From NCBI GenBank assembly GCA_965250155.1, contig OZ252291.1, positions 708,583 through 772,582 of the forward strand: 64,000 nt of DNA, in the 5' to 3' direction. Source of the stretch: Gemmatimonadales bacterium (GTDB lineage: Bacteria > Gemmatimonadota > Gemmatimonadetes > Gemmatimonadales > GWC2-71-9). Shown here one piece after another: positions 15,914-62,282 of the stretch; position 1 is the stretch's first letter, and each line of letters opens with the position of its first letter. The notes under the pieces were generated by a model. That model searched no databases. It saw only the letters and a list, made by a program, of their open reading frames with translations, and was not told the DNA's origin. Made by a program: the position numbers and the translations under genes.

Positions 15914-15983
15914 TTTGTTACGTACCTGAGACTGACTGCCCAACTTTGGTTCGTCGCTAATCAGTCACAACGGGAGAGTATTT

Positions 15984-38643: not shown

Positions 38644-38832
38644 CTAGCGCCTCAGAAACCGCTTCAGATTCCGCAGGTAGTAGCTCAACCCAAGCGCCGC
38701 AATGCCGAACGAGATTCCCAGAACGAGCAGCGCCACGCTGCCGTTGCCCCAGAACGCCAACAGCATCCAAACGCCGAGTCCGGCGCAGAAGAAAATGGCC
38801 GTTGCGATGAGGAAGCGGTGAAAGCCGATCAT
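38644..38832 (-). CDS. small two-TM membrane protein
   Basis: 62 aa with two hydrophobic helices. ATGA overlap with the ctaB stop. Confidence 0.5.
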   Translation of the reverse strand: MIGFHRFLIATAIFFCAGLGVWMLLAFWGNGSVALLVLGISFGIAALGLSYYLRNLKRFLRR

Positions 38833-39701
38833 ATGCGCGATCCCATGAGGATCAGGAGCAAGGGCAAGTAGGCTAGGGAGTATGTGAAGACACGGCGTGC
38901 TTTCGCCATGGTACAGTGCCTCACGGCGGAGAAACTGGCGTACAGAAAGGCACCGGACAGCGCCATCGCCCCCACGAAGTACGCCGTACCGGCCATGCCC
39001 ACGATCGTCGGGGTGAGGCTCACCGGCACGAGCGCGGCAGCGTAGAGTGTGGAGTACCCGAAGGTCATGCGGCCGTCCGGATCCCCCACGCTCAAGATCT
39101 TGAATCCGGCGCGGGCATAGTCGTCACGATACATCCAAGCGAGGGCCAGGAAGTGGGGCAGCTGCCACAGAAAGAGGATCCAGAACAGCACCCAGACCTC
39201 ACCGCTCAACGTTCCCCGCACCGCCGTCCACCCACCAACGATCGGCAAGGCCCCCGGCACTGCCCCCACGAGTGTCGCTATCGACGTGCGCTTTTTCAGG
39301 GGCGTATACACGAAGGCGTACGACATCAGAGTGGCCGCTGCGATACCGGCGGTGAGGATGTTGGCGAAAGCACCCAGATACGCCACACCAGCTACCCCCG
39401 TCACCCAGGCAAAGGCACTCGCCGCCGCCACACTGAGGCGTCCCGCCGGGACCGGCCGGCCTCGGGTCCGGTGCATGAGGGCATCGGCCTCCCGCTCGCT
39501 AACCTGGTTGAGGGCGTTTGTGCCCGATGCGACCAGCACCGTTCCCACCAGCACGTGGAACAACACCATAGCCTGGTGCGCCTCCGGCCCCGCGAGCCAG
39601 AATCCCGCCGCGGCCGTGAGCATCACCATTACCACGATCCTGGGCTTTGCCAACTCGGCAAAGTCATGAAGCTGGAATCTGTCTAAAGAAAGCTTTACCA
39701 A
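38829..39701 (-). CDS. ctaB: protoheme IX farnesyltransferase (heme O synthase)
   Basis: UbiA-family motifs NALNQVSEREADALMHRTRGRP and YRDDYARAG in a multi-TM protein. Confidence 0.9.
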   Translation of the reverse strand: MVKLSLDRFQLHDFAELAKPRIVVMVMLTAAAGFWLAGPEAHQAMVLFHVLVGTVLVASGTNALNQVSEREADALMHRTRGRPVPAGRLSVAAASAFAWVTGVAGVAYLGAFANILTAGIAAATLMSYAFVYTPLKKRTSIATLVGAVPGALPIVGGWTAVRGTLSGEVWVLFWILFLWQLPHFLALAWMYRDDYARAGFKILSVGDPDGRMTFGYSTLYAAALVPVSLTPTIVGMAGTAYFVGAMALSGAFLYASFSAVRHCTMAKARRVFTYSLAYLPLLLILMGSRI

Positions 39702-39973
39702 ACGTACTCCGTGAGCACGGCCACTATTATGACGATAGTTAACGGCAAAGGCGCAATGGCGAATATCCGCATCCTGTTGCCCTCAAACTTCAAATGCATG
39801 AAGTACAGCGCTACCAGGAGCGCCTTCCAGATGGCAAGCACGAGCAGGACGAGCAGCTGAATCTCCTTCGACCAGGGGAGGAAAGCCACTCCCAGCTCGA
39901 CGACGGTGAGCACCAACAGATAGGCCCAAATCGTCCAATACTTCGGTTGTGTGTGCGCCACTCCGTCGGACAT
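39695..39973 (-). CDS. cytochrome c oxidase subunit IV family protein
   Basis: 92 aa from MSDGVAHTQPKYW, with three TM helices and the pattern YFMHLKFE. Confidence 0.7.
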   Translation of the reverse strand: MSDGVAHTQPKYWTIWAYLLVLTVVELGVAFLPWSKEIQLLVLLVLAIWKALLVALYFMHLKFEGNRMRIFAIAPLPLTIVIIVAVLTEYVW

Positions 39974-39990
39974 AGATCCTCCCAGCCTGC

Positions 39991-40650
39991 TCAAACGAGA
40001 TAGACGATGGTGAACAAGATTATCCAGACCAGATCCACGAAGTGCCAATACAGGCCGACCACCTCAACTCCGCGATGATCTTCCTTCGTATACGCGCCTC
40101 TGTAGGCCTTCCAAGTCACAAAGCTCATGCAGATGACGCCCATGGTGACGTGAAAGCCATGGAATCCCGTCATGGTGTAGAACGACGAGCCGTAGACCCC
40201 CACAGACACCGGCAACAAGCCTTCGGCCGCTCGCTCCGCCAGCTCGCTCCCGGGACCGTACCCCGAAGGCAAGAATCCCGCGTGAACGAGATGGGTGTAC
40301 TCGTAGACCTGCACGCCGACGAAGGCCGCACCGATCGCAACGGTGGCCAGCAGGTACAGTTTGAGGAGGCGCTGGTCGCCGTCTTGAATCGCGGCGAACG
40401 CCTTCACCATCGTCACGCTGCTACAGATCAGGAGGAACGTGTTGACCGCAGTGAGCGGAACGTTGAGGATCTGTCCCGGAGCGCCCCACTGCTCGGGGCT
40501 GCCGAAGCGCAGAATGATGTACGATCCGATCAGGGCCGTGAAGAACAGCACTTCCGACCCCAGGAAGACCCACATGCCCAGCTTCTCGCTGTAGACATCC
40601 GCGCCGATCTCGCGTCGGGCCGGTGGACTCATCAAGGCAGGGTGAGCCAT
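39991..40650 (-). CDS. ctaE: cytochrome c oxidase subunit III
   Basis: Motifs FLGSEVLFF, TGFHGFHVTMG and YWHFVDLVWI. Confidence 0.9.
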   Translation of the reverse strand: MAHPALMSPPARREIGADVYSEKLGMWVFLGSEVLFFTALIGSYIILRFGSPEQWGAPGQILNVPLTAVNTFLLICSSVTMVKAFAAIQDGDQRLLKLYLLATVAIGAAFVGVQVYEYTHLVHAGFLPSGYGPGSELAERAAEGLLPVSVGVYGSSFYTMTGFHGFHVTMGVICMSFVTWKAYRGAYTKEDHRGVEVVGLYWHFVDLVWIILFTIVYLV

Positions 40651-40664: not shown

Positions 40665-42425
40665 CTATGCGCCGGCCGCAGCCGAATCGACGTCAGATAC
40701 CAGCTTGCGGGTTTGCGGGAGGAAGTCCTCCTCCACCAGCGGCGAGCTGTACTCGTAGGGACCGCGATACACCGTCGGTACCTTGGCAAAGTTGCCATGG
40801 GGCGGCGGAGAGGGAACCGTCCATTCCAGCCCGTTGGCATCCCACGGGTTCTCGGCAGCCTTCTCGCCCTTGAACCAGCTCATGATGAAATTCACCACGA
40901 ACAGTATTTGCACAATCAACAGCAACAACGCACTCACCGTAATGAACCTGTTGAGCGGGGCGAGCGACTGTAGGAATTCGTATTGCGAGGGGTCGTAAAT
41001 GCGTCGCATGTGTCCGCTGATGCCTAGATTGTGCATCGGGAAGAACGTCAGGTTGTAGAAAAGGAAAGTCAGCCAGAAATGGATCTTGCCCAGGGTGGCG
41101 TTCATCATCCGGCCGAACATCTTCGGGTACCAATATGTCACCGCCGCAAAGATGGCGAAGAGGCTTCCGCCGAACAGTACGTAGTGGATATGAGCCACGA
41201 TGAAGTAGGTATCGTGGATGTAGATGTCCACAGGCGTGGCAGCCATGAAGATTCCGCTCAGGCCGCCAATCACGAACATCGCCACAAACCCGACCGCGTG
41301 GAGCATCGGTACGTGGAAGCGAATGTTCCCCCGCCACATCGTTCCCATCCAATTGAACACCTTGATAGCCGACGGCACCGCGATGATCATGGTGGATATC
41401 ATGAACGTCATGCCCAACGTGGGATTCATGCCGCTCTGGAACATGTGGTGGCCCCACACGACCCATCCCAGAAAGGCGATGGAGATGAGCGCGAACACCA
41501 TCGAGTAGTAACCGAACACCGGCTTGCGCGATCCGTTCGCAATGATGTCCGAGACCATGCCCATCGCCGGCAGGATGAGGATGTAGACCTCAGGGTGCCC
41601 GAAGTACCAGAACAGGTGTTGCCAGAGGATCACTTGGCCGCCGTCCGTCCAATCAAAGAAGTGCGTCCCGATAGTCTGGTCGAAGAAGAGCATGATCGCC
41701 GCCCCCGAGAGGATGGGGATGGCAAGCAGCACAAGGATCGCCGTGACGAAGAGTGACCAGATCGACAGTGGCATCCTGAACCAGGTCATCCCGGGAGCCC
41801 GCAGGTTTACCACCGTCGTGATGTAGTTCACGGCACCCAAGATCGACGCTAGACCGAGGATCGCCAGGCTCAGCAGCCAGATTTGTTGTCCCCCCCTTAC
41901 GCCGGTCCATTCGGGATCCGCGCTGAGCGGCGCGTACGCCGTCCAGCCCGCAGCCGCGTGGCCGCCTTCGACGAAGAAGCCTGCCATCATCAAGATCCCG
42001 GCAGAGAAGGCAATCCAGAACGACGCCATATTGAGTCGCGGAAATGCCATGTCCGGCGCGCCGATCTTGAGTGGGATCAAGAAATTCCCGAACACGCCGA
42101 CCAGCAGCGGCATGATGGCGAAGAACACCATGATCGTGCCGTGCATAGTGACCAGCGAGTTATAGAATTCGGGAAGCAGGATCCCGTCGGGCGCCATGGT
42201 CTCGGGAAGCAGCTGCCCCGCCGGGAGCGGCCGGTCCGGAAATCCGAGTTGCCATCGGATCATCATCGCCATCAACCCGCCGAACAGCAGGAACACAAAG
42301 CTCATCAGCAGGAATTGAATGCCGATGATCTTGTGGTCGGTCGAGAAGATGTACTTTCGCAGGAAAGATAGCTCGTGGGCTTCCACGTGCGCTGCGGGTT
42401 CCAAAGAAACCGCGGAAGTCGCCAT
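40665..42425 (-). CDS. ctaD: cytochrome c oxidase subunit I
   Basis: Motifs WYFGHPEVYILILP, GHHMF, FVIGGLSG and VAHIHYVLFGG. Confidence 0.95.
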   Translation of the reverse strand: MATSAVSLEPAAHVEAHELSFLRKYIFSTDHKIIGIQFLLMSFVFLLFGGLMAMMIRWQLGFPDRPLPAGQLLPETMAPDGILLPEFYNSLVTMHGTIMVFFAIMPLLVGVFGNFLIPLKIGAPDMAFPRLNMASFWIAFSAGILMMAGFFVEGGHAAAGWTAYAPLSADPEWTGVRGGQQIWLLSLAILGLASILGAVNYITTVVNLRAPGMTWFRMPLSIWSLFVTAILVLLAIPILSGAAIMLFFDQTIGTHFFDWTDGGQVILWQHLFWYFGHPEVYILILPAMGMVSDIIANGSRKPVFGYYSMVFALISIAFLGWVVWGHHMFQSGMNPTLGMTFMISTMIIAVPSAIKVFNWMGTMWRGNIRFHVPMLHAVGFVAMFVIGGLSGIFMAATPVDIYIHDTYFIVAHIHYVLFGGSLFAIFAAVTYWYPKMFGRMMNATLGKIHFWLTFLFYNLTFFPMHNLGISGHMRRIYDPSQYEFLQSLAPLNRFITVSALLLLIVQILFVVNFIMSWFKGEKAAENPWDANGLEWTVPSPPPHGNFAKVPTVYRGPYEYSSPLVEEDFLPQTRKLVSDVDSAAAGA

Positions 42426-42459: not shown

Positions 42460-43134
42460 CTACTCCTCGTCGGCCGCCACGGTCCTGTCCGACAGCCACT
42501 GTTGGTAATCTTCCGCCAAGTGGACGATCACCCTGGCCCGCATGAGATAGTGACCCAGACCGCACAGCTCGGCACAAGCAATCTCGTACTCCCCTACTTC
42601 CGTCGCTTCGAACCACACCTTGATGTCCATACCCGGCACCGCGTCCTGCTTGACGCGGAACGCAGGGACGAAGAATGAGTGTATCACGTCTTCGGCAATC
42701 AGCTGCAGCTCCACAGGCCGGTTCACCGGAATGTGAAGCTGGTTTCTCAGCGTGAAATCGTCGCCGGTCCCGAGCTGCCCATCGGGACCCCGATAAGTGA
42801 AGTTCCACTCGAACTGCTTGGCATGGACTTCGTACGGGATGGCGTTCGGCGGAATGCTGTTCCGGCCCCTGACGTGATTCCACACCCCGCCGCTCATGAG
42901 TCCGATGATTACCAGCGTCACAGCCGGAACCGCAGTCCAAACAATCTCGGCCCTTATGCTTCCTTCGATGTATTGGGCCTTGCGGCCCGGCCGGGCCCGA
43001 TACTTGATCGCGAACACAACCAGCCCGACTTCGACCACCACAAACGCTATACCGGTAATGACGAGAATGACGTAATACAAAAAATCGATATCACCGGCGA
43101 ACGTGGACGCACTGGATGGTAGAATCCAACTCAT
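42460..43134 (-). CDS. ctaC: cytochrome c oxidase subunit II (no fused cytochrome c domain)
   Basis: Two TM helices with CuA ligands VIHSFFVP and CAELCGLGHYLM. The protein ends about 30 aa after the CuA motif. Confidence 0.9.
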   Translation of the reverse strand: MSWILPSSASTFAGDIDFLYYVILVITGIAFVVVEVGLVVFAIKYRARPGRKAQYIEGSIRAEIVWTAVPAVTLVIIGLMSGGVWNHVRGRNSIPPNAIPYEVHAKQFEWNFTYRGPDGQLGTGDDFTLRNQLHIPVNRPVELQLIAEDVIHSFFVPAFRVKQDAVPGMDIKVWFEATEVGEYEIACAELCGLGHYLMRARVIVHLAEDYQQWLSDRTVAADEE

Positions 43135-43146: not shown

Positions 43147-43902
43147 TCAGCCGCCGAACGTGAAGTGCAGACTCGCCGAGCCGTCAGCTGCCATCGTGAC
43201 TTCGCCCGACTGCGTACCGAACGTTTCGTGCCAGGCCTCGACCTGGTAGGTCCCCGCCGGCAACCCGCCGATGGTGAACGAGCCGTCGGCAGCAGATGTT
43301 GCGAAGTAGGGATGCTCCACCACGCCCACGTACGCGTTCATCCACCCGTGCACGTTGCACTCCATGGGAATCATGATTTCGGGCGTGGCGAAACTGCGCC
43401 GCGATGTCATTCCCACGCGCGGCTGGCTGATATTGAAGCCACGGTTTTCGGTCGGGACCGCCTTGATGTTGTGAAGCAGCGGGTCGCTGTTGGTGATTTC
43501 CAGAGTCTGGCCCACCATCACCCCCACCACTCGAGGCGAGTAGAGGCATCCGTTTTGGTCTATGGTTGCGGCTTCACTGGGCTCCGGATACGGCCCGCCG
43601 GGCAGTCCGCCCACGATGCGGATGAACACATTTGCCAATTTGCCGTCCGTCACCACCACAATCGGGTCCGTGGGTCCGTCGCTGTGTTTGGCGGCGCAAT
43701 CCGGTTCCTCTGCCATGTCGATGGCCGGGTTCGTTGGCACGCTGCCGGCAAAACTGATTACACCTGTGATACTGCTGTTACCCAGCGGCGCCGCAGATGC
43801 CGCGGCACCACCGCTCCCACCCGAGCCCCCGTCGCCCCCACCACACGCGAGAAACGCGAACAAGCACGAGGTTACCCAAAAACGTCGCATCTTTCCTCCC
43901 AA
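43147..43902 (-). CDS. cupredoxin-like (type 1 copper) lipoprotein with C-terminal carboxypeptidase-regulatory-like beta domain
   Basis: Lipobox FLACGGG. Putative ligands are LLHNI ... ECNVHGWM (C-x2-H-x2-M, as in amicyanin). The C-terminus ADGSFTIGGLPAGTYQVEAWHE fits the regulatory-like beta domain. Confidence 0.6.
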   Translation of the reverse strand: MGGKMRRFWVTSCLFAFLACGGGDGGSGGSGGAAASAAPLGNSSITGVISFAGSVPTNPAIDMAEEPDCAAKHSDGPTDPIVVVTDGKLANVFIRIVGGLPGGPYPEPSEAATIDQNGCLYSPRVVGVMVGQTLEITNSDPLLHNIKAVPTENRGFNISQPRVGMTSRRSFATPEIMIPMECNVHGWMNAYVGVVEHPYFATSAADGSFTIGGLPAGTYQVEAWHETFGTQSGEVTMAADGSASLHFTFGG

Positions 43903-43914: not shown

Positions 43915-45510
43915 CTATGCCCCGCGTTCCCGTCGCTGGGCGCGCCAGACGATGCCGAATCCAAGTCCTGCACTCAGCACAACAGCAACGATTGGTGCCA
44001 CAAACACGCGAGGCGGTGTCGGCACATCCAAATAGATCGCATACCAGGCACTGATCGAGCCGCGCACACCGTCCTCACCGGCGGTGCCGTCTGCGGCAAA
44101 GAAACCGATCGGCAACGGCTCACCCGGCGTGAATGGGACGGCACCGCTCGGGTCAGCCGGGGCCAACACCCGCATGAACTGCACCTGCCACTGGCCATCC
44201 GCAAATGTAGCCGAATGTGCAACCTGAGGCGCCCCGGCGATGGGCGCGAACGAACCCATTCCGGTAGCCGTGCCCTCTCGAACCCGATCCGGCGAGCTGG
44301 TCCACTGCCACATGTACACCGGGTGCCGCGGGTCGCCGCCCATAAAGAAGGGTAACTCCAATCCCTCGGGCGGGTCGAGCGGGAACTGAATTCCAATCCG
44401 GTCGGGACCCTGCTCCCCGACGTGGGGCGCATCGACATCTGGGAGCGTCTCGACGATGCCCTGGAAGAATGCGTCCCATTCCGGATCGGGACTTCGGGAC
44501 GGATCGTTCCACGTGAGCTTCACGGTCAGGTTCTGGTCGTCGTGCGCGGCTCGCACCCAAATGCCGTCCACCGTGGGCGCGAACCACCGTGGCTTGATAG
44601 TAATCTGACCGACCATCGGGATGTAATACGGTTCGACGTTGTCCCACAGCGGATCCTCCGGACCGGACGGCAACGCCCCGTCAAACCGCGCCGCACGCAC
44701 CACGTCGCGAGGCTGGGGCGCCTCGTCGGGCGAAAGACTCAGCACGTACTGCGCAACCCGCCAAAGCTGCTCGTCGGTAATGATTCCAGCGTCTATGACA
44801 TCACTGTTGGAGGGCATCGGTGTTCCATCCAACCCCGTCCGCATCCGGAGGTAGATGTCGTCGACCGTACCGCCGCCGTTGAAATTCCAGTTTTCCGAGA
44901 GATCGGCTGCCCGAACCGGGAACCCCCAGTCGTCGGTCAACTCCGGGGCGGAGTTCCCATCGCCGCGGCCCTCATCGCCATGGCAGCGGAGGCATTCCAG
45001 CTCATCCACAAACACGCGCCGCCCTTCCTCGAGGTCTGCTTCGGAGGGCCGCCCGGGCTTGCGCCCTACACTGATCGGCTCGGGCGGGGCGCCGTCGAAG
45101 AATCTCGAAAACGTCTTGATATACGCGATCACGTCATCCCGCTCGCCGCCGCTCAGCTTGTCAGCCCACCCCGGCATAGCCGTGCCAGGCATTCCATTGT
45201 CGATGACGGCGCGCATATCGTCATCCGTAGGCAACTCGCCGCTCGCAGTCGTTCTCACCTGGTAGACGGCCGTCGTGAAGTCGCGCGGTCGCGGCAACAT
45301 GAACGCCGCTGCCTCGCCGTCTCCGGCACCCGTGTCTCCGTGACACCCGGCGCACCATTTCTCGTAGAGCTGCTCGCCACGGTCTAGGTCTTGGGCAAGG
45401 ACGGAGGGGGGAGCAGGGAGGAGGAACGCCCCGGCCAGGAGCAGGAAGGCCGCGCACGGCAAGACTCCTCCCACCTCCCACCTCCCACCTCCCTTGACCG
45501 GCCGGATCAC
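43915..45510 (-). CDS. diheme cytochrome c fused to an ethylbenzene-dehydrogenase-gamma/DOMON-like (EB_dh) domain
   Basis: CAGCHG and CLRCHG, followed by IWVRAAHDDQNLTVKLTWND...DRIGIQFP. The GTG start at 45510 has AAGGAGAG upstream and overlaps the upstream stop (GTGA). Signal peptide ...SVLA/QDL. Confidence 0.7.
   Translation of the reverse strand: MIRPVKGGGRWEVGGVLPCAAFLLLAGAFLLPAPPSVLAQDLDRGEQLYEKWCAGCHGDTGAGDGEAAAFMLPRPRDFTTAVYQVRTTASGELPTDDDMRAVIDNGMPGTAMPGWADKLSGGERDDVIAYIKTFSRFFDGAPPEPISVGRKPGRPSEADLEEGRRVFVDELECLRCHGDEGRGDGNSAPELTDDWGFPVRAADLSENWNFNGGGTVDDIYLRMRTGLDGTPMPSNSDVIDAGIITDEQLWRVAQYVLSLSPDEAPQPRDVVRAARFDGALPSGPEDPLWDNVEPYYIPMVGQITIKPRWFAPTVDGIWVRAAHDDQNLTVKLTWNDPSRSPDPEWDAFFQGIVETLPDVDAPHVGEQGPDRIGIQFPLDPPEGLELPFFMGGDPRHPVYMWQWTSSPDRVREGTATGMGSFAPIAGAPQVAHSATFADGQWQVQFMRVLAPADPSGAVPFTPGEPLPIGFFAADGTAGEDGVRGSISAWYAIYLDVPTPPRVFVAPIVAVVLSAGLGFGIVWRAQRRERGA
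45467..45494. repeat. tandem heptamer CCTCCCA x3 plus one imperfect copy (TGGGAGG on the coding strand)
   Basis: Copies at 45467-73, 45474-80 and 45481-87, then CCTCCCT at 45488-94. It lies in codons 6-15 (KGGGRWEVGG) of the cytochrome gene. Confidence 0.9.
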
Positions 45511-46286
45511 TGCTCTCCTTCCACTTCCCACGTCCTCGGCTCCAACCCCGCCTGCTCGTAGATGAAGATGATCACGGACCAGATCTCGTCCTCGGTAAGG
45601 AAATCCTCCCACACCGGCATCGCCGAATTCCACGGCGTCCCTTCAGGCGGCAACCCCGGACCGCCCTTTGCTATGCGCCAGAAGAGGAAGCTCTCTTGCA
45701 GTTGATCGATCGTGCCTGCCTCGAACGCCAGCGGTGTCGGGTTGAAACCGTGGCCGAAGTGCCCTTGCCCGTCCAACAGATCGCCGTGACAAGGCAGGCA
45801 ATTCTGATAGTAGACCCGCCTTCCCTCCAAGTAATGCTCTTCCATGGAGCCGCGCGACCGCAGCGGGTTCTCCAGGCCGGCTAACTTGATAGTCTTATCG
45901 CCGAACCTGATGGTCGCAGGCGGCGCCGGGTGAATCGACCGCAGCTGAGCCGTCGAGCCCACTTTCGGCCGTGCCATGTTGAATGTCGCCAGCCCGATCA
46001 GCACTGAAATCGCCGCAAGCAATGCGCCTCGCAGCGCGCGCTTGTCCGCATCCACCAGCGTCGCCTGTATCGGCTCCTTGAACCTCTTCCAGCGCTCCTC
46101 GTTCTCGCTCACAAAGATGAGTATTCCCAGCAACGCAATGAGCATGTACTCCAACACCACGCTGTTCGGTACGGCGGCGCTCCCGGGAAACAACGGAATC
46201 CCATAATTGAAAAACAGAAATGCGCCAAGCGAAAGCGCGACCGCCTGACCGAACGGATGCTTCATCCAACCCAGGATTCTCTTCAC
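45507..46286 (-). CDS. membrane-anchored monoheme cytochrome c
   Basis: Three N-terminal hydrophobic helices, CLPCHG, and AMPVWEDFLTEDEIWSVIIFIY (class I cytochrome c C-terminal pattern). The GTG start overlaps the upstream TAG by 1 nt. Confidence 0.75.
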   Translation of the reverse strand: MKRILGWMKHPFGQAVALSLGAFLFFNYGIPLFPGSAAVPNSVVLEYMLIALLGILIFVSENEERWKRFKEPIQATLVDADKRALRGALLAAISVLIGLATFNMARPKVGSTAQLRSIHPAPPATIRFGDKTIKLAGLENPLRSRGSMEEHYLEGRRVYYQNCLPCHGDLLDGQGHFGHGFNPTPLAFEAGTIDQLQESFLFWRIAKGGPGLPPEGTPWNSAMPVWEDFLTEDEIWSVIIFIYEQAGLEPRTWEVEGEQ

Positions 46287-47080
46287 TATCGCCGTCCTGC
46301 CAGGAACTGAACCATGGCTTCTAGCTGCTGGGCCGACAGTTTCTGCCCGAAGTCAACCGGCATCATGCCTGCAAATTGTTCAAAGCCGTCGGAAATTTCT
46401 GCATTTGGATCGAGAATAGCGCTCCTTATCTGATCCGCCGTGAGCCGGGCGCCAATCCCGTCGAACGACGGCCCGATCGGAATCGAGATTCCGTTGATGC
46501 CGTGGCAACCGATGCACACATTCTGTGTGAGCAGCTGCATTGGATCTGTGGTCGAGCTGAAAGTGGCCGGCACCGCCGCAGCCGCGGCCGGCTCCGCGGA
46601 TTCGCCTCCGCCTGGCTGGATGTCGGCGGCCGTTACCGTAACCTCACCCCCTTGATCCTGGAGATAGGCGATGATGGCCCAGATCTGGTCAGCCGAGAGT
46701 TGTCGCCGAGCATCCGGCATGATAGCGGTGAATCCGTCTACCAGGTACTCGGCCGGCTGAGTGAGCGATTCGTAGAGATATGCTTTGCAATCCATCCCCG
46801 GCTTAGAATCGCCACACCGCTGCCCAATCGTCCCCTGGCCGGCGTGATCCGTGCGGAGATTCGGCGCCCGGGTACCCAACCCATGGCACACCGTGCAGCC
46901 ACCCGCACCGCTGAAGAGCGCCTCACCGGCAGGTACCAGCACCTCAGGAGTGACCCCTGCACTCAGATCCAGCACCTCCGGCACGGCAGATTGCAGTTGC
47001 GGAATGATCTGTGCCACCATCGTGTAAAACCCCAGCACGATGGCGGCGAGCAACAGCACCCTGAGATTCGTCTTCCACAT
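46286..47080 (-). CDS. diheme cytochrome c, N-terminal anchor/signal
   Basis: CTVCHG and CIGCHG, with DQIWAIIAYLQ and QLEAMVQFL helices. The start was taken at MWKTNLRVLLL, 4 nt after the upstream stop. Confidence 0.8.
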   Translation of the reverse strand: MWKTNLRVLLLAAIVLGFYTMVAQIIPQLQSAVPEVLDLSAGVTPEVLVPAGEALFSGAGGCTVCHGLGTRAPNLRTDHAGQGTIGQRCGDSKPGMDCKAYLYESLTQPAEYLVDGFTAIMPDARRQLSADQIWAIIAYLQDQGGEVTVTAADIQPGGGESAEPAAAAAVPATFSSTTDPMQLLTQNVCIGCHGINGISIPIGPSFDGIGARLTADQIRSAILDPNAEISDGFEQFAGMMPVDFGQKLSAQQLEAMVQFLAGRR

Positions 47081-47084
47081 AACG

Positions 47085-48839
47085 CTACTCCACGAGAGTC
47101 GCGGGTTGTGTCTGCCGCGCAAGCGGCGCCGCCTTGGACTCCGATGCGATCCCCTCGGCCAGGCCGCCCAGCCAAAAGATGAACGTGACCAAGCTCAAGA
47201 AGATTACGACACACACGGTTATCATGTTCGCGGCGTACCCCAACGCCGGCGTGACGGCATAGTCGCTGGTGTCGCGCATGACCTCCCACACGTGCCAGTG
47301 CTGCCGAATGCCGCTGCGTGCGAAGCCCATCAACCCCATGAGCCAGGTGAAAGTGATCGCTAGAACGAAGATCGCGTATTGCGACCGCTCGGGCATCTCA
47401 CCCCAGCGAATCTCGCCTTTCGACCCCGCTCCTCGGAGGATGAACACGTCGATCACCGTCACCCCGATGATACACGCGAGCACCGCAACCACCTGTAACG
47501 GGCTGAGTACGGCGACCCGTGTGATGGTCTCGACCCCGAACGACACACCGAAGAGATCGAATTTGTATCCAATGATTCCCAAGAACAGCACGACGCCCCC
47601 GGACAGCACGAACATCGCCCCCTGGATAAGGGTCCCCGTCTTGGCCCAGGGGACCGTAGGAATCCTGTTCGCCCGCCGATACAGCAAGAAGGAAAGGAAA
47701 GTGGTCAGAATCATGAAATTAACGGCGGTGTTCTTCGCGCTCATCAGGCCGAGCACACCGAGGAAGGGATGGCGGCTGCCCCCCATTGCCGCGAATTCGT
47801 CACGCGTAGCGATCAGGGTGTTCGGAGTGCCCCATACTATCCAACAGATGATCAGGACCACCAGCATCCACTTCGTGTAGGGCATGAATCGTTCGGCTCC
47901 GGGTATTCGCCCCATCCCCGTCCACAGGTAGTAATTGGCCGACAGGAACAGTACGCCGATGAGAATGGCTTGGACGATCCACAACCAGCTCATGAAGCCA
48001 CCCATCATCGTAATGCCCAGCTGTTGGTTGTACTCGTAAATCTCCCGTCCCAGGTAATAGCCCGCGAAGGGCAGCACGATAAACATCGAGATGGCGATGA
48101 ACGTCCCCACGTATCCCATCCAATCGTAGTGGGCACGCTCTTCATCGGTCTTGGCCGCCAAGAAACGATACGCCGCGTACGCCGCGACGATCGAGCCACC
48201 GAACACGGCGTTGGCAATCATGCGGTGTATGTTGATCGGCATCCAAGTGGCGTTGGCGATGGCGTTCCACAACCCGACGCCCTCGGGCAGGCCTTGCACG
48301 GTGGTGCCCTCGGGCGGCGACATCATGTAGGTAAGCCATCCATTGGCAATGAACATGACGGCGGTGCCCCACACGTTCAGCAGCAGGCCGAGCCCCCAGT
48401 GCCCCCATTTGGCGCGACCTTCCTTCCACTTGTCCCAGCCGTAGTAATAGAGGTATAGCGTGAACGATTCGATGAAGAACAGGCCGGCATAGATCCACAT
48501 TGACAGATGGAAGATCTCCGCCATGTGGCCCCAGAACGCCGGGTAGAGCGTTGACAGAAGAAACAGCAGCAACCCGCCCCACAGAGCGGTGGCGCTGTAG
48601 GCGAAAACCAACAGCCGCGTGAACTCTTTCGAGAGCTTGTCGTATTTCGAGTCCTTGCCGACGATTCCGATGAACTCGGTGATCACGGCAAACATGGGCA
48701 CGCCGAGTACAAACGCGGCGAACATCAGGTGGATTTCCGCCGCAATCCAAACCGCGCCCCGCGCACCAATGCCCGGGAAGTCGCCGTACTGGCGGGCGCC
48801 ATCCGCGGCTCCCTGGATCAGGCTCAGCGCGTCAATCAT
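47085..48839 (-). CDS. cytochrome bd-like membrane protein (CydA family, no Q-loop, no CydB partner)
   Basis: The N-terminal ~190 aa are collinear with E. coli CydA (EIHLMF, FFIESF, YYYGWDKW, FIANGWLTYMM, NIHRMI). About 13-14 hydrophobic spans. Degenerate GIRQHW stands in place of GRQPW. Confidence 0.75.
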   Translation of the reverse strand: MIDALSLIQGAADGARQYGDFPGIGARGAVWIAAEIHLMFAAFVLGVPMFAVITEFIGIVGKDSKYDKLSKEFTRLLVFAYSATALWGGLLLFLLSTLYPAFWGHMAEIFHLSMWIYAGLFFIESFTLYLYYYGWDKWKEGRAKWGHWGLGLLLNVWGTAVMFIANGWLTYMMSPPEGTTVQGLPEGVGLWNAIANATWMPINIHRMIANAVFGGSIVAAYAAYRFLAAKTDEERAHYDWMGYVGTFIAISMFIVLPFAGYYLGREIYEYNQQLGITMMGGFMSWLWIVQAILIGVLFLSANYYLWTGMGRIPGAERFMPYTKWMLVVLIICWIVWGTPNTLIATRDEFAAMGGSRHPFLGVLGLMSAKNTAVNFMILTTFLSFLLYRRANRIPTVPWAKTGTLIQGAMFVLSGGVVLFLGIIGYKFDLFGVSFGVETITRVAVLSPLQVVAVLACIIGVTVIDVFILRGAGSKGEIRWGEMPERSQYAIFVLAITFTWLMGLMGFARSGIRQHWHVWEVMRDTSDYAVTPALGYAANMITVCVVIFLSLVTFIFWLGGLAEGIASESKAAPLARQTQPATLVE

Positions 48840-50154
48840 CGCGCGAGAAGAAAGGCAGACGTTTCGAGAAATCCACCGGCATATTGCGGCGCACCTCCCG
48901 CATCAGTTCGGCGGTAACCTCGGTGTGCCCCTCGCGCCGCGCGTAATCCTCCAGCCGTTTCACGACCACGCCGCGTACAAACGAGGGGATGCGTTGAATC
49001 CGCGCCTCAGCCTCATCCGACCACTGCAATTTGGCGGTGACCACCGCCCCATAGGTCACGGCGCGCGAGGTGACGAGCGGACGAGTCTCGTCCGGCTCAT
49101 AGGCACAGGAAGAATCTTCCGCCATGTAGTCGCCGCTCGAGCTGTAAGCCCGGGCACGACACCCACCACAAATCGCTCGGTATTCACAGCGACCGCACTT
49201 TCCGCCTAGCGCTCCCCGGCGCAGATCGTGAAACAGCTCCGAGTTGTTCCACACCTCGGCGAACGACGACTCACGGAGATCGCCGGCCGGGAGCGGCATA
49301 TAAGGACACGCCGTGAGCTTGCCGTCTGGTGTTATGCGCCCGTACTGCACGCCGCACGGGCAGCGGGTGGCATAATTGAGAATCGGAGACTCCGGAGCGC
49401 GCTGGTGCACCAGCCGCATGAAATGCGGTGCACACTTGGCTCGCACCATCATTCGCCCCATGTACTCGATATGAAGGTCCACGAGCTCGCCCAACGAATC
49501 CTCGTATTCCTCCGGCGACAACTCCGCCATCTTAGCGCCGCGCCCCGTGGAAACCACGAAATACGCGTTGAACGACACGGCGCCCTTCTCGGCGGACCAC
49601 GCAACCAGTCCAGGCAGCTCGCGACGGTTCCCCTTGGTGAGCGTGGTTTGTATGACGAAATCGAGACCGTGCACTACCAACCTGTCCACTGCAGCCAGCG
49701 TCGCATCGAGCGAACCGTGGCCGTGCCGGAAGCGGTCGTGATACTTCACGTCGAGCGACTCGACACTCACGGCAACACCGGTCACGCCGGCGTCCTGTAA
49801 CGCGGCGATTTTCTCGGAGGTGAGCAAAGTGCCATTGGTGCCTACGACCACTGTAGCTCCACCCTTCGCCGCATGCGAAGCTATCTCCGAGAGATCCTCA
49901 CGCAGCAGGGGCTCGCCGCCCGACAGGATAAACATGGGATTGGGATTGAGGGCGAGAATCTCGTCTGCGATGCGCAGGCACTCGTCGGTAGACAGCTCAT
50001 CGTCGGCGGATTCGGAGGGGCCCGCCGAGATATAGCAGTGCGCACACTGGAGATTACACCGGCGCGTGAGATTCCACGCGACAACATGGGGCAAGTAGTT
50101 GCCCGCTTGGCGATCACCGGCCGGCGCCTCTCCCAACGCCGCGAGTGACGTCAC
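48832..50154 (-). CDS. radical SAM/SPASM enzyme of the NirJ/AhbC/AhbD type with C-terminal PCP_red-like domain
   Basis: VVAWNLTRRCNLQCAHCY, ILSGGEPLLREDL and the SPASM Cys cluster GKCGRCEYRAICGGCRARAY. The C-terminus reads WSDEAEARIQRIPSFVRGVVVKRLEDYARREGHTEVT. Confidence 0.8.
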   Translation of the reverse strand: MTSLAALGEAPAGDRQAGNYLPHVVAWNLTRRCNLQCAHCYISAGPSESADDELSTDECLRIADEILALNPNPMFILSGGEPLLREDLSEIASHAAKGGATVVVGTNGTLLTSEKIAALQDAGVTGVAVSVESLDVKYHDRFRHGHGSLDATLAAVDRLVVHGLDFVIQTTLTKGNRRELPGLVAWSAEKGAVSFNAYFVVSTGRGAKMAELSPEEYEDSLGELVDLHIEYMGRMMVRAKCAPHFMRLVHQRAPESPILNYATRCPCGVQYGRITPDGKLTACPYMPLPAGDLRESSFAEVWNNSELFHDLRRGALGGKCGRCEYRAICGGCRARAYSSSGDYMAEDSSCAYEPDETRPLVTSRAVTYGAVVTAKLQWSDEAEARIQRIPSFVRGVVVKRLEDYARREGHTEVTAELMREVRRNMPVDFSKRLPFFSRDD

Positions 50155-52139
50155 TCGTCTCCTGTTTTCAGCAACTTTTCGACCGCTGCCTTGGCGTCAG
50201 CCACCGACACTGTTTTAAAGTCAACGGGACAGGCCGACGCTTTTTCCTCTATATCCCTTATGGGACACCTGGTGACCCCGGACGCCTTCGCCTCTTCGAT
50301 AAATTGCCGCATCTCCCGCGACAGTCCATCTCCACCCTCGGCTTCCGCACGAATCTGCTTGGCGCGCAGCTCCCGGAACATCCCCATCATTGTCTCCGCA
50401 TCGAACTCGTCCGCCTCGATCATCGCCTGTTTGTTCTCGTCCATGACCGAAGTGGTGACGCGCCACATCTCATGACCACTGGCGAATTTCTCCACCGCAT
50501 TGCGGGCCAGCGGACGGGCGATCAAGGGAACCGTTCTGAGGCGCTCGAAAGCTTCGACGGTCCAGACAGTGGAGTCTGCCACTTTACGTTCGCGCGTCGT
50601 CATGTGACCGGTCATGGGGCACTTTACGTCGACCACGGCCCCCGCGATTTCGCTGTCTGCCTCATTCCCCAGCACCAGCGTTTTGGCCATCTGCTCCTCG
50701 GCCTTGATTTCGGCACGAGCCAGCTCCTCTGCGTCACCGACGCCCATCAGCAACTGCATGTGAGTCGGCAACAACTTCCGGATGGCCTCGTCCAACCATT
50801 TGTTCGTCACCAGGTCGGCGCCGTGCTCAATGGTGTACTCCTCAACCGCGCGGCGCGCTATCCCCTGTGCGAACGGAGGCACGCGCTGAATTCGCACCTC
50901 GGCGTCCGGGGCCCACGGAATTCCCTCTTTGCCGTCCTCTTCGAGCCAGGGAATGTCCTCGGGCCTTACACCGACCGTCCCGGTAACCAGCAGATTGCAC
51001 GGGGCGAGTCGCAGCAGGTTCTCTACCTGAGAGCCCATCTCCGTTCCATCGATCCGGTGTGCGCCGTGTCGCCCCACGATCAACAGGCTTGGTTGAATCT
51101 CCTCGACCCACTGCAGAATGACTTGGAACGGTTTGCCTATGAGAATCTGCGTTTCGAACCGAACATCGGGAAACTCTTTTGCGATCGCCTCAGCACGCTT
51201 GATGTTCGCTTGGCTGAGCTTCAGGAGTCCCTTGTCGATGATGTTGTTGTGAAGCTCCTCCTGCTCTTCGAACTTGAAGACCTTGGACGCCTTCTCGGAG
51301 AGTACATCCTTGATGTTGTTGAAGACGGCGTGATGATATTCGACGTCGAACGCACTGCAAACGTATACCATCGCATCAAAGTCGCGGGCAAGTTCCAGAG
51401 CGACTCTCATCGTCCTGTAGCTGTACGCGGACCCGTCGACGCAAACCATGAACTTGCCGCGACGCAGTGGCTTGTCGTTGCGGATGATGAGCATGTCCTT
51501 TTCAATGCGCCTTGCCGCCCTGGCAACTACACCGCCAATCTGCGAGTACGGCTGGCGGCCGATGCCGTGTGCGCCCATCAATACCAGATCGTATTGCCGC
51601 CCCGACGCGCCGGCGAGTTTGTCAGCCTGATCTTCGTCCTCACCAACTATGCGTCCGTCGGCACCCAGCCGGACGTCAGAACGAACCCGCTCGCCCCCGT
51701 CGTAATTGGCCGCGATGTTCGGATCGAACCCGATCAGGCTGGGTAGTTGACCCGCTCCACGATTAACCTCGTTAACAATTTCCTCGTAGTTGATTCCCTC
51801 GAGGAGTTGTCGCCGCAACGGAACATCCGCAGCCGCGCAGCGCCGCTCCACCTGGTCGAGGAACGAGTCGGAGATGAGTTGCAGGCCCTTCTCGATCAGC
51901 TTGTCGTGGACTTTGCGCTGGCGCTTGATCTCGGCGGGCGTCTGAAATTGTGCTGGAAGGCCTGTCTCGAGCTGGCGGAATCGAACGTCGTGAAGCCGCG
52001 CCGCGTAGACATGGTTGCCGGTGATGCGCCCTTGGGATTTCGAGCACACCTCGATTGCGCGGGCCACGGCCCAATCGGAGCATTGGGAGTTATCAACTGG
52101 AACGAGAACTTCACTGTACATACCCCCGCCCTTCGGCAA
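50151..52139 (-). CDS. tandem universal-stress-protein domains fused to two PCP_red-like domains
   Basis: Usp patterns VLVPVDNS...DLVLMGAHG and FMVCVDGS...SLLIVGRHG. The PCP_red-like copies are at aa 407-455 and 525-570. The C-terminal tail carries CPIRD...ACP. Confidence 0.7.
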   Translation of the reverse strand: MPKGGGMYSEVLVPVDNSQCSDWAVARAIEVCSKSQGRITGNHVYAARLHDVRFRQLETGLPAQFQTPAEIKRQRKVHDKLIEKGLQLISDSFLDQVERRCAAADVPLRRQLLEGINYEEIVNEVNRGAGQLPSLIGFDPNIAANYDGGERVRSDVRLGADGRIVGEDEDQADKLAGASGRQYDLVLMGAHGIGRQPYSQIGGVVARAARRIEKDMLIIRNDKPLRRGKFMVCVDGSAYSYRTMRVALELARDFDAMVYVCSAFDVEYHHAVFNNIKDVLSEKASKVFKFEEQEELHNNIIDKGLLKLSQANIKRAEAIAKEFPDVRFETQILIGKPFQVILQWVEEIQPSLLIVGRHGAHRIDGTEMGSQVENLLRLAPCNLLVTGTVGVRPEDIPWLEEDGKEGIPWAPDAEVRIQRVPPFAQGIARRAVEEYTIEHGADLVTNKWLDEAIRKLLPTHMQLLMGVGDAEELARAEIKAEEQMAKTLVLGNEADSEIAGAVVDVKCPMTGHMTTRERKVADSTVWTVEAFERLRTVPLIARPLARNAVEKFASGHEMWRVTTSVMDENKQAMIEADEFDAETMMGMFRELRAKQIRAEAEGGDGLSREMRQFIEEAKASGVTRCPIRDIEEKASACPVDFKTVSVADAKAAVEKLLKTGDE

Positions 52140-52261: not shown

Positions 52262-52507
52262 TCACGGCACGAGTTGCTTTCCGTCGCCATCGAAAACCGT
52301 GAGAGCGTCAACCGGACAAATCTCACACGCTCGAAGGAGTCTCTCGCGCTCTACCGACTCGGGATGCTCGCCGAACACGGCGATGTCATCAGCATCCAGC
52401 TGGAACCCCTCCGGCGCCTCGGACACGCAATCTCCGAAGCCAACGCAGAGACCTCGGTCGATTTGGATTCTCAGCCCTGCGATCGTGCGCTCGTCAATCT
52501 CGGACAC
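52262..52507 (-). CDS. single-cluster ferredoxin
   Basis: 81 aa with CVGFGDC ... CEICP (a CxxFxxC...CP pattern, suggesting 3Fe-4S or a 4Fe-4S cluster with a non-Cys ligand). Confidence 0.8.
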   Translation of the reverse strand: MSEIDERTIAGLRIQIDRGLCVGFGDCVSEAPEGFQLDADDIAVFGEHPESVERERLLRACEICPVDALTVFDGDGKQLVP

Positions 52508-52948
52508 CTACATCGCCTCCAGACCCAGATCGGCACGGGCTTCATCCATGACGGCGGGAGTAATCTCGGCAATCCCGTGTTCGGCCGCCCACTCCACATA
52601 AATCTTCTTGACCATCCCCCGAACGAACTTGGGCACCCTGGTCAGCCGTTCCTCGCTTTCGGCGCTCCAACGCACGCCGCCGGGTCCGCCGGGTGCGGCA
52701 TCCTCGAACGCGTCTTCCCGACCGATCATGGAGCGGCGCGTGAGTTCCATGGGCTGCTCGTCCAGCGTCCGCCCTCCAATCTGCACACCGAGGGCCCCCA
52801 CCAACTGCGTTTCCATGGGATTCGCCAACATCGCTACCTTGTACCCGCACTTCGGACAGCTAAACGATGCGCCAAATGTTCCGTCGCCGGGTTCTTGCCT
52901 CTCCTCGAACGTCATCTGCTCGTCGCAACCGACGCATAGGAACTTCAT
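52508..52948 (-). CDS. zinc-ribbon + PCP_red-like domain protein
   Basis: CVGC...CPKC at the N-terminus. The C-terminus reads VRWSAESEERLTRVPKFVRGMVKKIYVEWAAEHGIAEIT. It abuts the ferredoxin start. Confidence 0.6.
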   Translation of the reverse strand: MKFLCVGCDEQMTFEERQEPGDGTFGASFSCPKCGYKVAMLANPMETQLVGALGVQIGGRTLDEQPMELTRRSMIGREDAFEDAAPGGPGGVRWSAESEERLTRVPKFVRGMVKKIYVEWAAEHGIAEITPAVMDEARADLGLEAM

Positions 52949-52985: not shown

Positions 52986-53828
52986 TTACCGGACGCACCC
53001 CCAAAAGGCGTCTACCAGGCCGGGCGTATCACAGCTCGCCGGCCCGGCGCCCGGCGTGAACGGAACGCGCGCCAGCAGGGGCACGCCAAACTCCTCAGAC
53101 AGGTCGTTGCCCGCCGTTCCATCGAACAACGCACGCAGCGCACCACACTCATCACATCGATAACTGCTCATGTTTTCCACGATCCCGAGGAGGGGTATGC
53201 CGGCTTCCGACGCCGAGCACATGGTTCGAGCGACCGATCTACGAGACTCCTCGCTGGGGATCGTGACGACGAGGGCACCGGTCAGGTTGGGAACCATCTG
53301 CTTGAGATCCACACCGCCGTCCGCACCGGGAGGCAGGTCGACCAGCAGCAGGTCAAGGGCTCCCCACACCACGTCGCTCAGGAACTCTCTCAGCGTACCG
53401 GTCTCCAGCACACCCCGCCACACAAAGCGCTCGGTGGTCGGCTCACGCCAACGCAGCGGTTGGCTTTCCTCCAGGAGCAAGTCCGTCGACACCACACGAA
53501 CGCCGACCGTACCTATGGCTGGTTCGATGCCGTCTTCGGTGACGCGCAAGGGGCCGCTCACCGCCAGAAGTCTCGCCACGGTGGGGCTGCGCAGGTCGGC
53601 GTCCAGAACACCCACTCCCTGTTCGAGACGTGAGGCCAGGCCGGCTGCCAGAGTCGCCGTCAGATGGCTCTTGCCGACGCCGCCCTTGCCGCTCATCACG
53701 GCCACAACCTGTCGCACGGATGCCAGTCGACGACCCACTCTCTCACGCTGGGCTACCACCTGCGCGTACAACTGCGACCGATCTTCGCCCCCGACGTCGT
53801 GATAGGTGCGGAAACTCATAGATCCCAT
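52986..53828 (-). CDS. Mrp/NBP35 (ApbC)-family Fe-S cluster carrier ATPase
   Basis: Deviant Walker A SGKGGVGKS, LLLVDLPPG and ENMSSYRCDECG (CxxC). Confidence 0.85.
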   Translation of the reverse strand: MGSMSFRTYHDVGGEDRSQLYAQVVAQRERVGRRLASVRQVVAVMSGKGGVGKSHLTATLAAGLASRLEQGVGVLDADLRSPTVARLLAVSGPLRVTEDGIEPAIGTVGVRVVSTDLLLEESQPLRWREPTTERFVWRGVLETGTLREFLSDVVWGALDLLLVDLPPGADGGVDLKQMVPNLTGALVVTIPSEESRRSVARTMCSASEAGIPLLGIVENMSSYRCDECGALRALFDGTAGNDLSEEFGVPLLARVPFTPGAGPASCDTPGLVDAFWGCVR

Positions 53829-54244
53829 CCAGCCCGTGCGAGCATCCAGAGGTTGATCGTCACGACCACGATCGCCGCCATGTGGAAACCAGGCGGTGCG
53901 CGACTATCGGCGGCCGCGAAAAACGCCCCTTCGATCAAGAACGGGAGCCGAAGACCGTGGATCGGCCATATCACGCGGGCAAACCACACGTTACGCCACC
54001 TATACAGCCCAACGAACACAAGTCCGGCCACGAAGGCGCCGACCCCGAGCCAAAACCAGGCACGGACTCCGGTGGGCACCCCACCGCCCCCCATCATCAC
54101 ATACGCCGCCGCCTCGTAGAGGATGGCAACGTGCAGGTACACGAACGCCGCTTGGCGAAATTTCGCCACGCGAGCGTCAGGCCAATCCTGTTTTAGTATG
54201 AACCCTGCCATCGCACCACAACAATCCACCCCAACGCCACGCAT
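53816..54244 (-). CDS. hypothetical integral membrane protein
   Basis: 142 aa with 3-4 hydrophobic helices. It is the first gene of the minus-strand string. No family recognised. Confidence 0.45.
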   Translation of the reverse strand: MRGVGVDCCGAMAGFILKQDWPDARVAKFRQAAFVYLHVAILYEAAAYVMMGGGGVPTGVRAWFWLGVGAFVAGLVFVGLYRWRNVWFARVIWPIHGLRLPFLIEGAFFAAADSRAPPGFHMAAIVVVTINLWMLARAGWDL

Positions 54245-54277: not shown

Positions 54278-54901
54278 ATGCCGGCATTGTTGCATCCCAT
54301 GAGAAGCGAGCGCGGGATTGCCGCCGCACCGATCCTGCTCCTCACCGGTTTCGGACTCTTTGTGATCGTCATCGGTTTTCTGGTGGTGTCATCGATGATG
54401 CCCAGAGAGGCCTTGGTGTTCGAGCCCACACCGATCTGGCCAACTCCCGCCCCGGTACAAACACTGCTGCACGACACGGTGACGATCGACTCGCAAGAGC
54501 CGACTATCTGGCACTTCTTCGACTTCGATCGCGCTTCCATCGTGCTACCACCGGACACGGCCGGATGGGACCTGGCGATCCGGCGGTTTGCGGTGATAGC
54601 GGCGGATGCGGTGGCCGACATGGGCCCGGCGGCGTTTGACGAGGTGACCGAAGCCCCTGTAGCCGGCTTCGTCGAAACGTCATTTGGCCGGGATACCCTC
54701 AACGCAGCTATCGACCGGTGGTACCGCTACAGCATGGTATCCCACCTATTGGAGCCCAACGATCATGTGTACGTGGTGCGGACACGCGAGTCCCGATTTG
54801 CGAAGTTGGAGTTCCTCAGCTACTACTGTCCCGGGGTCGTCGCGGGCTGCCTGACGTTTCGCTATGTGTATCAGCCGAATGGCGAGAGGGAGTGGCAGTA
54901 G
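54278..54901 (+). CDS. membrane-anchored HmuY-like domain protein (tentative)
   Basis: N-terminal TM helix. GWDLAIRRFAVIA and VYVVRTRESRFAKLEFLSYYCPG resemble HmuY-like family blocks as I recall them. Confidence 0.4.
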   Translation: MPALLHPMRSERGIAAAPILLLTGFGLFVIVIGFLVVSSMMPREALVFEPTPIWPTPAPVQTLLHDTVTIDSQEPTIWHFFDFDRASIVLPPDTAGWDLAIRRFAVIAADAVADMGPAAFDEVTEAPVAGFVETSFGRDTLNAAIDRWYRYSMVSHLLEPNDHVYVVRTRESRFAKLEFLSYYCPGVVAGCLTFRYVYQPNGEREWQ

Positions 54902-62266: not shown

Positions 62267-62282
62267 TGCGAGAGCGCAGACC

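Follow-up and report, generated by a model that had tools for sequence, protein, structure and literature searches.

What does a homolog of cytochrome bd subunit I do when both the long periplasmic Q-loop and the partner subunit CydB are missing? The question is raised by an open reading frame (ORF) in a 64,000-nucleotide stretch of DNA from a Gemmatimonadales bacterium (GenBank assembly GCA_965250155.1, contig OZ252291.1, positions 708,583 to 772,582 of the forward strand), which is referred to below as the window. An earlier note on this DNA had described the product of the ORF as an orphan CydA-family protein. We find that the ORF, at positions 47085-48839, almost certainly encodes the heme-binding membrane subunit of a "cytochrome bd-like" complex of the OR-N2 type. 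The question of what bd-like (OR-N) proteins do dates back to about 2010, and a role as the principal terminal oxidase has been proposed for them in two groups of key nitrifiers, Nitrospira and Nitrospinota.

The gene and the key residues of its product, with their CydA equivalents, are as follows.

47085..48839, minus strand: CydA-like (OR-N2 or "bd-like") subunit of 584 amino acids (aa), with 13 predicted transmembrane (TM) helices, the N-terminus outside and the C-terminus inside. Key residues: H37 (His19), Y117 (at the Glu99 position), E124 (Glu107), H147 (His126), H205 (His186), H357, M366/K369/N370, S509 (at the Glu445 position) and H514-W515-H516.

A CydA homolog without Q-loop or CydB

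Membership in the CydA family, as proposed in the earlier note, was borne out by three kinds of comparison. The protein matched PF01654 (cytochrome bd subunit I) with an E value of 6.9e-17 and 61.6 bits, against a cut-off of 26.2. When it was compared with PDB chains by phmmer, residues 19-269 aligned to the CydA chains 9r2g_A (E 3e-10) and 5doq_A (E 8e-10); the alignments to PDB CydA chains stopped at about residue 270, and no match was found beyond. A family profile built from 19 diverse homologs retrieved CydA of Geobacillus (5doq, E 4e-18), Mycobacterium smegmatis (9r2g, E 1e-15) and Escherichia coli (6rko, E 9e-9). Finally, an AlphaFold2 model computed from an alignment of 101 homologs (mean predicted local distance difference test score, 82.6; predicted template modeling score, 0.84) was submitted to Foldseek, and the ten top PDB matches were all CydA or AppC (E 1e-8 to 3e-5). 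No solved structure of the OR-N2 type was present among the PDB chains searched.

The pairings of short motifs on which the note had relied (H37 with His19, FFIES with FFLES, YYYGWDKW with FFFGWDRL, ANGW with ANGW, and H205 with His186) were all seen again in the HMMER alignments. One label has to be corrected: the glutamate of the FFLESTF motif, called Glu99 in the note, is Glu107 (E124 here), and the Glu99 position is occupied by Tyr117.

The model contains 13 long helices. Many homologs carry an extra N-terminal hydrophobic segment that is absent from the window protein and brings the number of TM helices to 14; the note had counted 13 to 14 spans. Lysines and arginines number 21 on the inside and 9 on the outside, which supports the canonical orientation with the N-terminus out. 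TM6 and TM7 are connected by only about 11 or 12 residues (271-281 in the model), and the long Q-loop is absent, as the note had said. The note had also reported that no CydB or CydX gene flanks the ORF. Among the annotated ORFs of the window there was no match to the CydB family, and none was found in 80 related loci with the same gene order (the best 80 loci of a scan of genome contigs, all from Gemmatimonadota). No CydX gene flanks the CydA-like gene, which lies between a radical SAM gene and one for a cytochrome c. We are highly confident that the Q-loop region has been taken over by additional membrane helices and that CydB is absent. The CydA-like protein contains no CxxCH motif. An internal duplication, in which CydA would be fused to a CydA'- or CydB-like half, was rejected at the sequence level: when the N-terminal part of the family alignment was compared with its C-terminal parts, hhalign assigned probabilities of less than 4%.

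The public annotation of the protein, "cytochrome ubiquinol oxidase subunit I," favors a simpler explanation, in which it is an ordinary quinol-oxidizing cytochrome bd whose CydB, CydX or Q-loop was missed, or a decaying pseudogene. An ordinary enzyme does not fit the missing Q-loop, the replacement of Glu445 by Ser and of Glu99 by Tyr, or the lack of a CydB match in the window. Decay is at odds with an intact reading frame, more than 7,600 homologs, about 80% identity across the Gemmatimonadales and more than 100 invariant alignment columns. As far as sequence can tell, these observations refute both variants of this explanation, which we regard as extremely improbable.

Residue signature and heme ligands

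Conservation was assessed in the 101 homologs, which are 52-97% identical to the window protein. Y117, E124, Y131, Y133, H147, H205, H357, M366, N370, R512 and H516 are invariant, and H37, S509, H514 and W515 are kept in at least 90% of the sequences. In the family profile H37 aligned with His19 of 6rko_A, and HMMER paired H205 with His186 in CydA of Geobacillus and of M. smegmatis. Tyr117 aligned with Geobacillus E101, which is the Glu99 position, in agreement with Table S6 of Murali et al. (2021). The GRQPW motif of CydA is degenerate (IRQHW), as had been noted, and Ser509, three residues ahead of its arginine, takes the place of the Glu445 ligand.

These alignments make it very nearly certain that the four-helix core of CydA is retained, including the His19-type heme ligand, a Tyr-Glu-His line reaching in from the cytoplasmic side and the His186-type ligand. 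The model places H147 close to where TM4 ends on the cytoplasmic side, E124 halfway through the membrane in TM3 and Y117 beyond it toward the outside, a layout with the geometry expected if protons were to be led from the cytoplasm to the heme site at TM1.

On the periplasmic face, the model topology places H205, M366, H357 and H516. The invariant M366 belongs to an MSAKN motif at the periplasmic start of TM9. M366 and N370 follow the His186 equivalent by 161 and 165 residues, the same spacing as that of M430 and N434 in the OR-N2 reference. Other signature spacings match as well: the Glu107 equivalent is followed by tyrosines at +7 and +9 and by a histidine at +23, and the serine by a tryptophan at +6. 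A methionine is probably the second ligand of a b558-like heme near the periplasmic face, and the conserved spacing suggests that M366 may serve as this ligand. The note had placed the Met ligand region in the Q-loop; the loop is indeed lost, but given the invariant M366 the ligand has probably not simply gone with it.

A similar distinction applies to the cofactors. The note had proposed that both the cofactor set and the electron donor differ from those of a quinol oxidase. A donor other than quinol bound at the Q-loop is plausible, as the literature also proposes. However, the loss of Glu445 by itself does not prove the loss of a heme, because H357 and H516, both periplasmic, are kept even in distant homologs.

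A respiratory gene array

The description of the gene as an orphan did not hold. It overlaps or abuts its neighbors in an array of 16 genes on the minus strand, all in the same direction, in which successive genes overlap or are separated by no more than 37 nucleotides (nt), apart from one gap of 122 nt. The genes upstream of the CydA-like gene, from the start of the array, are the following.

53816-54244, minus strand: 142-aa membrane protein, function unassigned; first gene of the array.
52986-53828, minus strand: Mrp/NBP35-type Fe-S cluster carrier ATPase; best NCBIfam match, MrpORP.
52508-52948, minus strand: zinc-ribbon and PCP_red protein.
52262-52507, minus strand: small [4Fe-4S] ferredoxin.
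50151..52139, minus strand: 662-aa protein with two Usp and two PCP_red domains.
48832..50154, minus strand: radical SAM/SPASM protein with a C-terminal PCP_red domain; its stop overlaps the start of the CydA-like gene by 8 nt.

Downstream of the CydA-like gene follow its likely redox partners and an aa3-type cytochrome c oxidase.

46286..47122, minus strand: membrane-anchored diheme cytochrome c (CTVCH, CIGCH) with one N-terminal TM helix; translation probably begins at a Met near 47080.
45507..46286, minus strand: monoheme cytochrome c (CLPCH) with three N-terminal TM helices.
43915..45633, minus strand: diheme cytochrome c (CAGCH, CLRCH) with an EbdC/NxrC-gamma-like heme b domain and a C-terminal TM anchor; "alternative NxrC" type.
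43147..43902, minus strand: cupredoxin lipoprotein (lipobox LAC) with a type-1 copper domain and a C-terminal CarboxypepD_reg beta-sandwich.
42460-43134, minus strand: CoxB of the aa3-type cytochrome c oxidase; Pfam COX2 and COX2_TM only.
40665-42425, minus strand: CoxA of the aa3-type oxidase.
39991-40650, minus strand: CoxC of the aa3-type oxidase.
39695-40048, minus strand: CoxD of the aa3-type oxidase.
38829-39701, minus strand: CtaB, heme O synthase.

The partners encoded next to the CydA-like gene are all periplasm-facing, membrane-tethered redox proteins, and the three cytochromes together would carry five hemes c and one EbdC-like heme b. The third of them, with 572 aa, matches TIGR03477 (dimethyl sulfoxide [DMSO] reductase type II heme b subunit; E 7e-20) and EB_dh; its start is provisional, since the ORF as listed runs 127 nt into the upstream gene. 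For the lipoprotein, Pfam gave CarboxypepD_reg only. A profile of its orthologs matched the type-1 blue-copper protein 5fc9 (E 2e-4) and amicyanins, and a His...Cys-x2-His-x2-Met pattern (H144, C182, H185, M188) is invariant. The protein is therefore best described as a lipid-anchored cupredoxin. The gaps between this module and the cox genes are 12-34 nt, with 12 nt to coxB. Neither a Pfam cytochrome c domain nor a CxxCH motif was found in CoxB, which would therefore require an external donor.

Several other genes of the window were recorded. A gene for an HmuY-like heme-binding protein (54278-54901, plus strand; PF14064, E 1e-9) is divergent from the start of the cluster. CcmC/CcmB/CcmA are encoded at 16782-18827 and CtaG with SCO1 at 28315-29774, all on the minus strand; Ccm proteins serve cytochrome c maturation, and CtaG and SCO1 deliver copper to heme-copper oxidases. 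The plus strand encodes, at 60578-63371, a NuoF-like flavoprotein and, after it, a NuoG/formate dehydrogenase-like Fe-S/molybdopterin protein, whose ORF may run further. A 2,066-aa ORF at 1075-7275 (minus strand) has a match to SprA_N, which is related to type IX secretion and gliding.

Conservation of the array

We then evaluated how widely the array is kept. Wherever the contig was long enough to show it, the 80 Gemmatimonadota loci retain the entire array. The radical SAM gene was found in 79 of the 80, the diheme cytochrome c in 77, the Usp-PCP_red gene in 72 and CoxA in 63. Within this phylum, the bd-like module is thus a constant component of the locus for aerobic respiration, where it adjoins the genes of an aa3 oxidase.

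Six clustered loci from other phyla (L081-L086) were obtained by single look-ups. They include Rhodocaloribacter litoris (L081), a metagenome-assembled genome of Myxococcota (L084) and the contigs L082, L083, L085 and L086. The core of four genes (the CydA-like gene, two cytochromes c and the cytochrome c/EB_dh gene) occurs in all six. Orthologs of the upstream genes are less evenly distributed: five of the six loci have Usp-PCP_red and Mrp, four have the small PCP_red protein, and three have the radical SAM protein. They lie at 16833-21842 in L081, 15743-21838 in L085 and 15081-21800 in L086, and their order varies. In L081, an IS605 OrfB/TnpB (Cas12f-like) element occupies 15447-16607, between the structural genes and the radical SAM/PCP_red genes.

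The surroundings of the core differ among these loci. L084 contains, at 3439-15546, two divergent, back-to-back, paralogous bd-like clusters, each with its own cytochromes and cupredoxin-type lipoprotein; compared with the window protein, their CydA-like products show 42% and 56% identity. Genes resembling ActA and ActB, components of alternative complex III (ACIII), together with an extra cytochrome c gene, directly precede the bd-like gene in L082 (5268-10004) and L083 (5136-10004). An NrfD-type ActC/ActF subunit was absent from the 10 kb upstream in both loci, which look like a hybrid arrangement of ACIII and the bd-like module. ActA/ActB-like genes also precede the bd-like gene in L085. 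Directly upstream of the bd-like cluster of L086 lie genes for a complete ACIII, for SCO1 and for a caa3 oxidase, which form one respiratory island with it; the quinol:cytochrome c step is therefore already supplied there. A search of the 10 kb around the cluster, both in the window and in each of the 80 loci, found no ACIII genes save for one ActD-like match in L061.

In seven homologs (P0121, P0123, P0138, P0289, P0310, P0314 and P0322) a cytochrome c domain, in some homologs related to the diheme cytochrome c of the array, is fused to the CydA-like protein, which argues for a physical association with the cytochrome encoded downstream. Homologs from Nitrospira (L087) and "Candidatus Manganitrophus" (L088), with 38-48% identity, are stand-alone genes without cytochrome c neighbors. 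The P0140 clade (Nitrospira tepida and "Ca. Manganitrophus") is uninformative on the accessory genes, since its genes stand alone.

Accessory genes and the cofactor

In the B subunit of protochlorophyllide reductase, PCP_red forms the C-terminal domain, which lies over the bound tetrapyrrole. Across phyla, the five to six genes conserved next to the bd-like genes comprise an AhbD/NirJ-like radical SAM/SPASM-PCP_red protein, Usp-PCP_red, zinc-ribbon-PCP_red, a ferredoxin and Mrp. The same set accompanies the structural genes in Gemmatimonadota, in Rhodocaloribacter and in several further lineages. The radical SAM enzyme is closest to the clade that decarboxylates or trims heme precursors: its top family matches are AhbD (heme b synthase; 297 bits) and NirJ2 (293 bits), which fall below the equivalog cut-offs (500) of TIGR04545 and TIGR04055 and make it a member of neither equivalog.

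These upstream genes probably form a set dedicated to the maturation of a cofactor. One step further, the bd-like enzyme might carry a tailor-made heme, neither plain heme b nor heme d, that is made or inserted by the accessory proteins. We hold this second proposal to be rather doubtful, although it gives concrete form to the earlier idea of a different cofactor set and, if true, would define a new heme modification route tied to a respiratory enzyme. The accessory set is not mentioned in Murali et al. (2021) or Lücker et al. (2013), nor did it appear in the literature that we searched for PCP_red (PF08369) and for bd-like proteins in combination with radical SAM.

Possible roles: oxygen reductase or substitute for complex III

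We favor, at close to even confidence, a function as cytochrome c/cupredoxin:O2 oxidoreductase that would operate beside the aa3 oxidase encoded downstream. A reductase of O2 fed by cytochrome c has been proposed by Murali et al. (2021) and in genome papers on Nitrospinota and Nitrospirales. The CydA-like protein, the three anchored cytochromes and the lipid-anchored cupredoxin would assemble as a periplasmic wire for the entry of electrons. From the cytochromes c, the EbdC-like heme b and the cupredoxin, electrons would pass to the b558-like heme (H205/M366) and on to the His37 heme, where O2 would be reduced with protons drawn from the cytoplasm.

Several points weigh against an oxidase. Glu445 and Glu99 of canonical cytochrome bd are absent from the CydA-like protein, and two terminal oxidases in one array as tight as this would be unusual. 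The bd-like module has been reported from strictly anaerobic anammox bacteria (Lücker et al. 2013 among the sources), and for Nitrospina, Lücker et al. (2013) discussed it in an ACIII-like role, not in that of an oxidase. The bd-like gene of L082 and L083 follows ActA/ActB-like genes that come without an NrfD-type quinol subunit. An activity measurement for any OR-N enzyme was not found in the literature, and papers that use the OR-N names call the enzyme uncharacterized. Likewise, the literature yielded no purified or cryo-electron microscopy bd-like complex and no biochemical paper, in keeping with the note's view of the family.

The last-named loci, the anammox reports and the proposal of Lücker et al. 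(2013) lend support to another role, that of an ACIII-like menaquinol:cytochrome c/cupredoxin oxidoreductase. Its quinol site would lie outside the Q-loop, it would feed the aa3 oxidase of the same array, and it would run in reverse in nitrite oxidizers and anammox bacteria. E266 also speaks for this role, being invariant and located where TM6 reaches the periplasmic face and a Q-loop would start. The short gaps into coxBACD-ctaB, an order kept in all sufficiently long Gemmatimonadota loci, also fit this role, as do the lack of a cytochrome c match in CoxB and the near absence of ACIII genes around the cluster. In a survey of 326 Gemmatimonadota genomes, petB was present in 23%, ACIII in fewer than 10% and caa3 in 74%, and its authors suggested possible novel complex III modules.

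Other observations argue against an ACIII-like function. The published quinol-binding residues of the Q-loop are missing. The H147-E124-Y117 line from the cytoplasm fits proton uptake, and quinol oxidation at the His37 site would free protons on the wrong side of the membrane. The complete ACIII of L086 stands beside both caa3 and the bd-like cluster, and the radical SAM protein, with its likeness to heme-tailoring enzymes, hints at a specialized catalytic heme rather than at plain electron-transfer hemes. We consider the ACIII-like role possible, if on balance unlikely. The choice between O2 reductase and complex III substitute, which the genomic context sharpens, matters because most Gemmatimonadota genomes lack a recognizable bc1 complex or ACIII and most have a caa3-type oxidase.

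A third role is suggested by the 572-aa partner with its matches to TIGR03477 and EB_dh. The module could be the anchor and electron hub of a periplasmic type II DMSO reductase-family molybdoenzyme, connected through the EbdC/NxrC-like protein, as proposed for the alternative NxrC clusters of Nitrospira, or it could reduce another oxidant such as nitric oxide (NO) or H2O2. According to the literature, the same gene set flanks nitrite oxidoreductase (NXR) in Nitrospira, Nitrospina and Kuenenia, and canonical bd enzymes also handle NO and peroxide. No gene for NxrA/NxrB-type or other periplasmic molybdoenzymes was found in this cluster or in the related loci, however. The only molybdopterin-type gene of the window (62283-63371) is NuoG/FdhA-like, is on the opposite strand and lies about 8 kb past the upstream end of the cluster and about 13 kb from the CydA-like gene. 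Furthermore, the constant neighbors of the module are aerobic respiratory genes. These alternatives are improbable in our view.

R. litoris, which contains the module, is a cultured aerobic heterotroph and should be more workable than nitrifiers or anammox bacteria. With its context in Gemmatimonadota and Rhodocaloribacter, its link to aa3 and the accessory genes, the long-standing question of the function of bd-like enzymes becomes easier to approach.

Comparison with known systems

The window adds no new kind of protein. A Q-loop-less CydA-like protein of this type had already been described, so the finding is less new than the earlier note implied, and a specialist would not be surprised by the protein itself. 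Lücker et al. (2010) is reportedly a further source of the name "cytochrome bd-like oxidase" for the proteins of Nitrospira, Nitrospina and Kuenenia. Those described under this name in the same three genera by Lücker et al. (2013) have 14 TM helices and an N-terminal part that can be aligned with CydA and keeps the heme b ligands. Their Q-loop is replaced by predicted membrane helices, and every quinol residue is missing. They are encoded with an alternative NxrC, monoheme and diheme cytochromes c and cupredoxin-like proteins.

The OR-N2 type of Murali, Gennis and Hemp (2021) is defined by 14 TM helices, retention of H19, E107, H126 and H186, replacement of E99 by Y and of F114/F116 by Y/Y, M430/N434 in place of Met393, replacement of E445 by S, and a Trp six residues after this Ser. 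Its operons contain several cytochromes c and an EbdC homolog and no second CydA-like gene, and OR-N is listed in Gemmatimonadota. The window protein has every one of these signature residues, each invariant or at least 90% conserved in the 101 homologs and with matching spacing. It further resembles OR-N2 in its 13 TM helices (14 in many homologs), in the four to five N-terminal helices that align with CydA, in the helices at the place of the Q-loop, in the lack of CydB and in its operon partners. Judged by these traits, it is a rediscovered member of a known, unstudied family in a phylum where OR-N had been recorded. It differs from the published examples in that its host, a member of the Gemmatimonadota, has no NXR genes nearby and in that the bd-like module is joined head to tail to an aa3 operon. 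In addition, the N-terminal hydrophobic segment of many homologs is missing here, and the radical SAM and PCP_red genes go unmentioned in those papers.

With canonical CydAB(X) (qOR1-3; 6rko, 5doq, 7nkz and 9r2g) the window protein shares the CydA fold and orientation, the ligands of the His19 and His186 types, and Glu107 and His126 of the proton path. Unlike these enzymes, it lacks the Q-loop, the quinol residues, Glu445, Glu99, CydB and CydX, and it has four extra TM helices. Its partners are c-type cytochromes, a heme b EB_dh protein and a cupredoxin.

The position of a membrane complex with multiple hemes c directly upstream of heme-copper oxidase genes recalls ACIII (ActABCDEF) beside caa3. 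ACIII of Chloroflexus likewise uses a cupredoxin, auracyanin, as a partner. The window has neither the NrfD-type quinol subunit nor the Fe-S subunit ActB of ACIII, whereas the core of its module is a heme-binding CydA homolog; PMC8076601 describes NrfD subunits as being without cofactor.

Two other groups of the cytochrome bd superfamily are informative. The quinol site is likewise absent from OR-C1, for which cytochrome c is the presumed donor (Murali et al. 2021), but CydA of OR-C has 8 TM helices and its own CxxCH, whereas the window protein has 13 TM helices and no CxxCH. In OR-N1, Glu107 is replaced by Gly and the operon contains petA, petB and petD; in the window protein the corresponding E124 is invariant, and the cluster contains no Rieske or cytochrome b genes.

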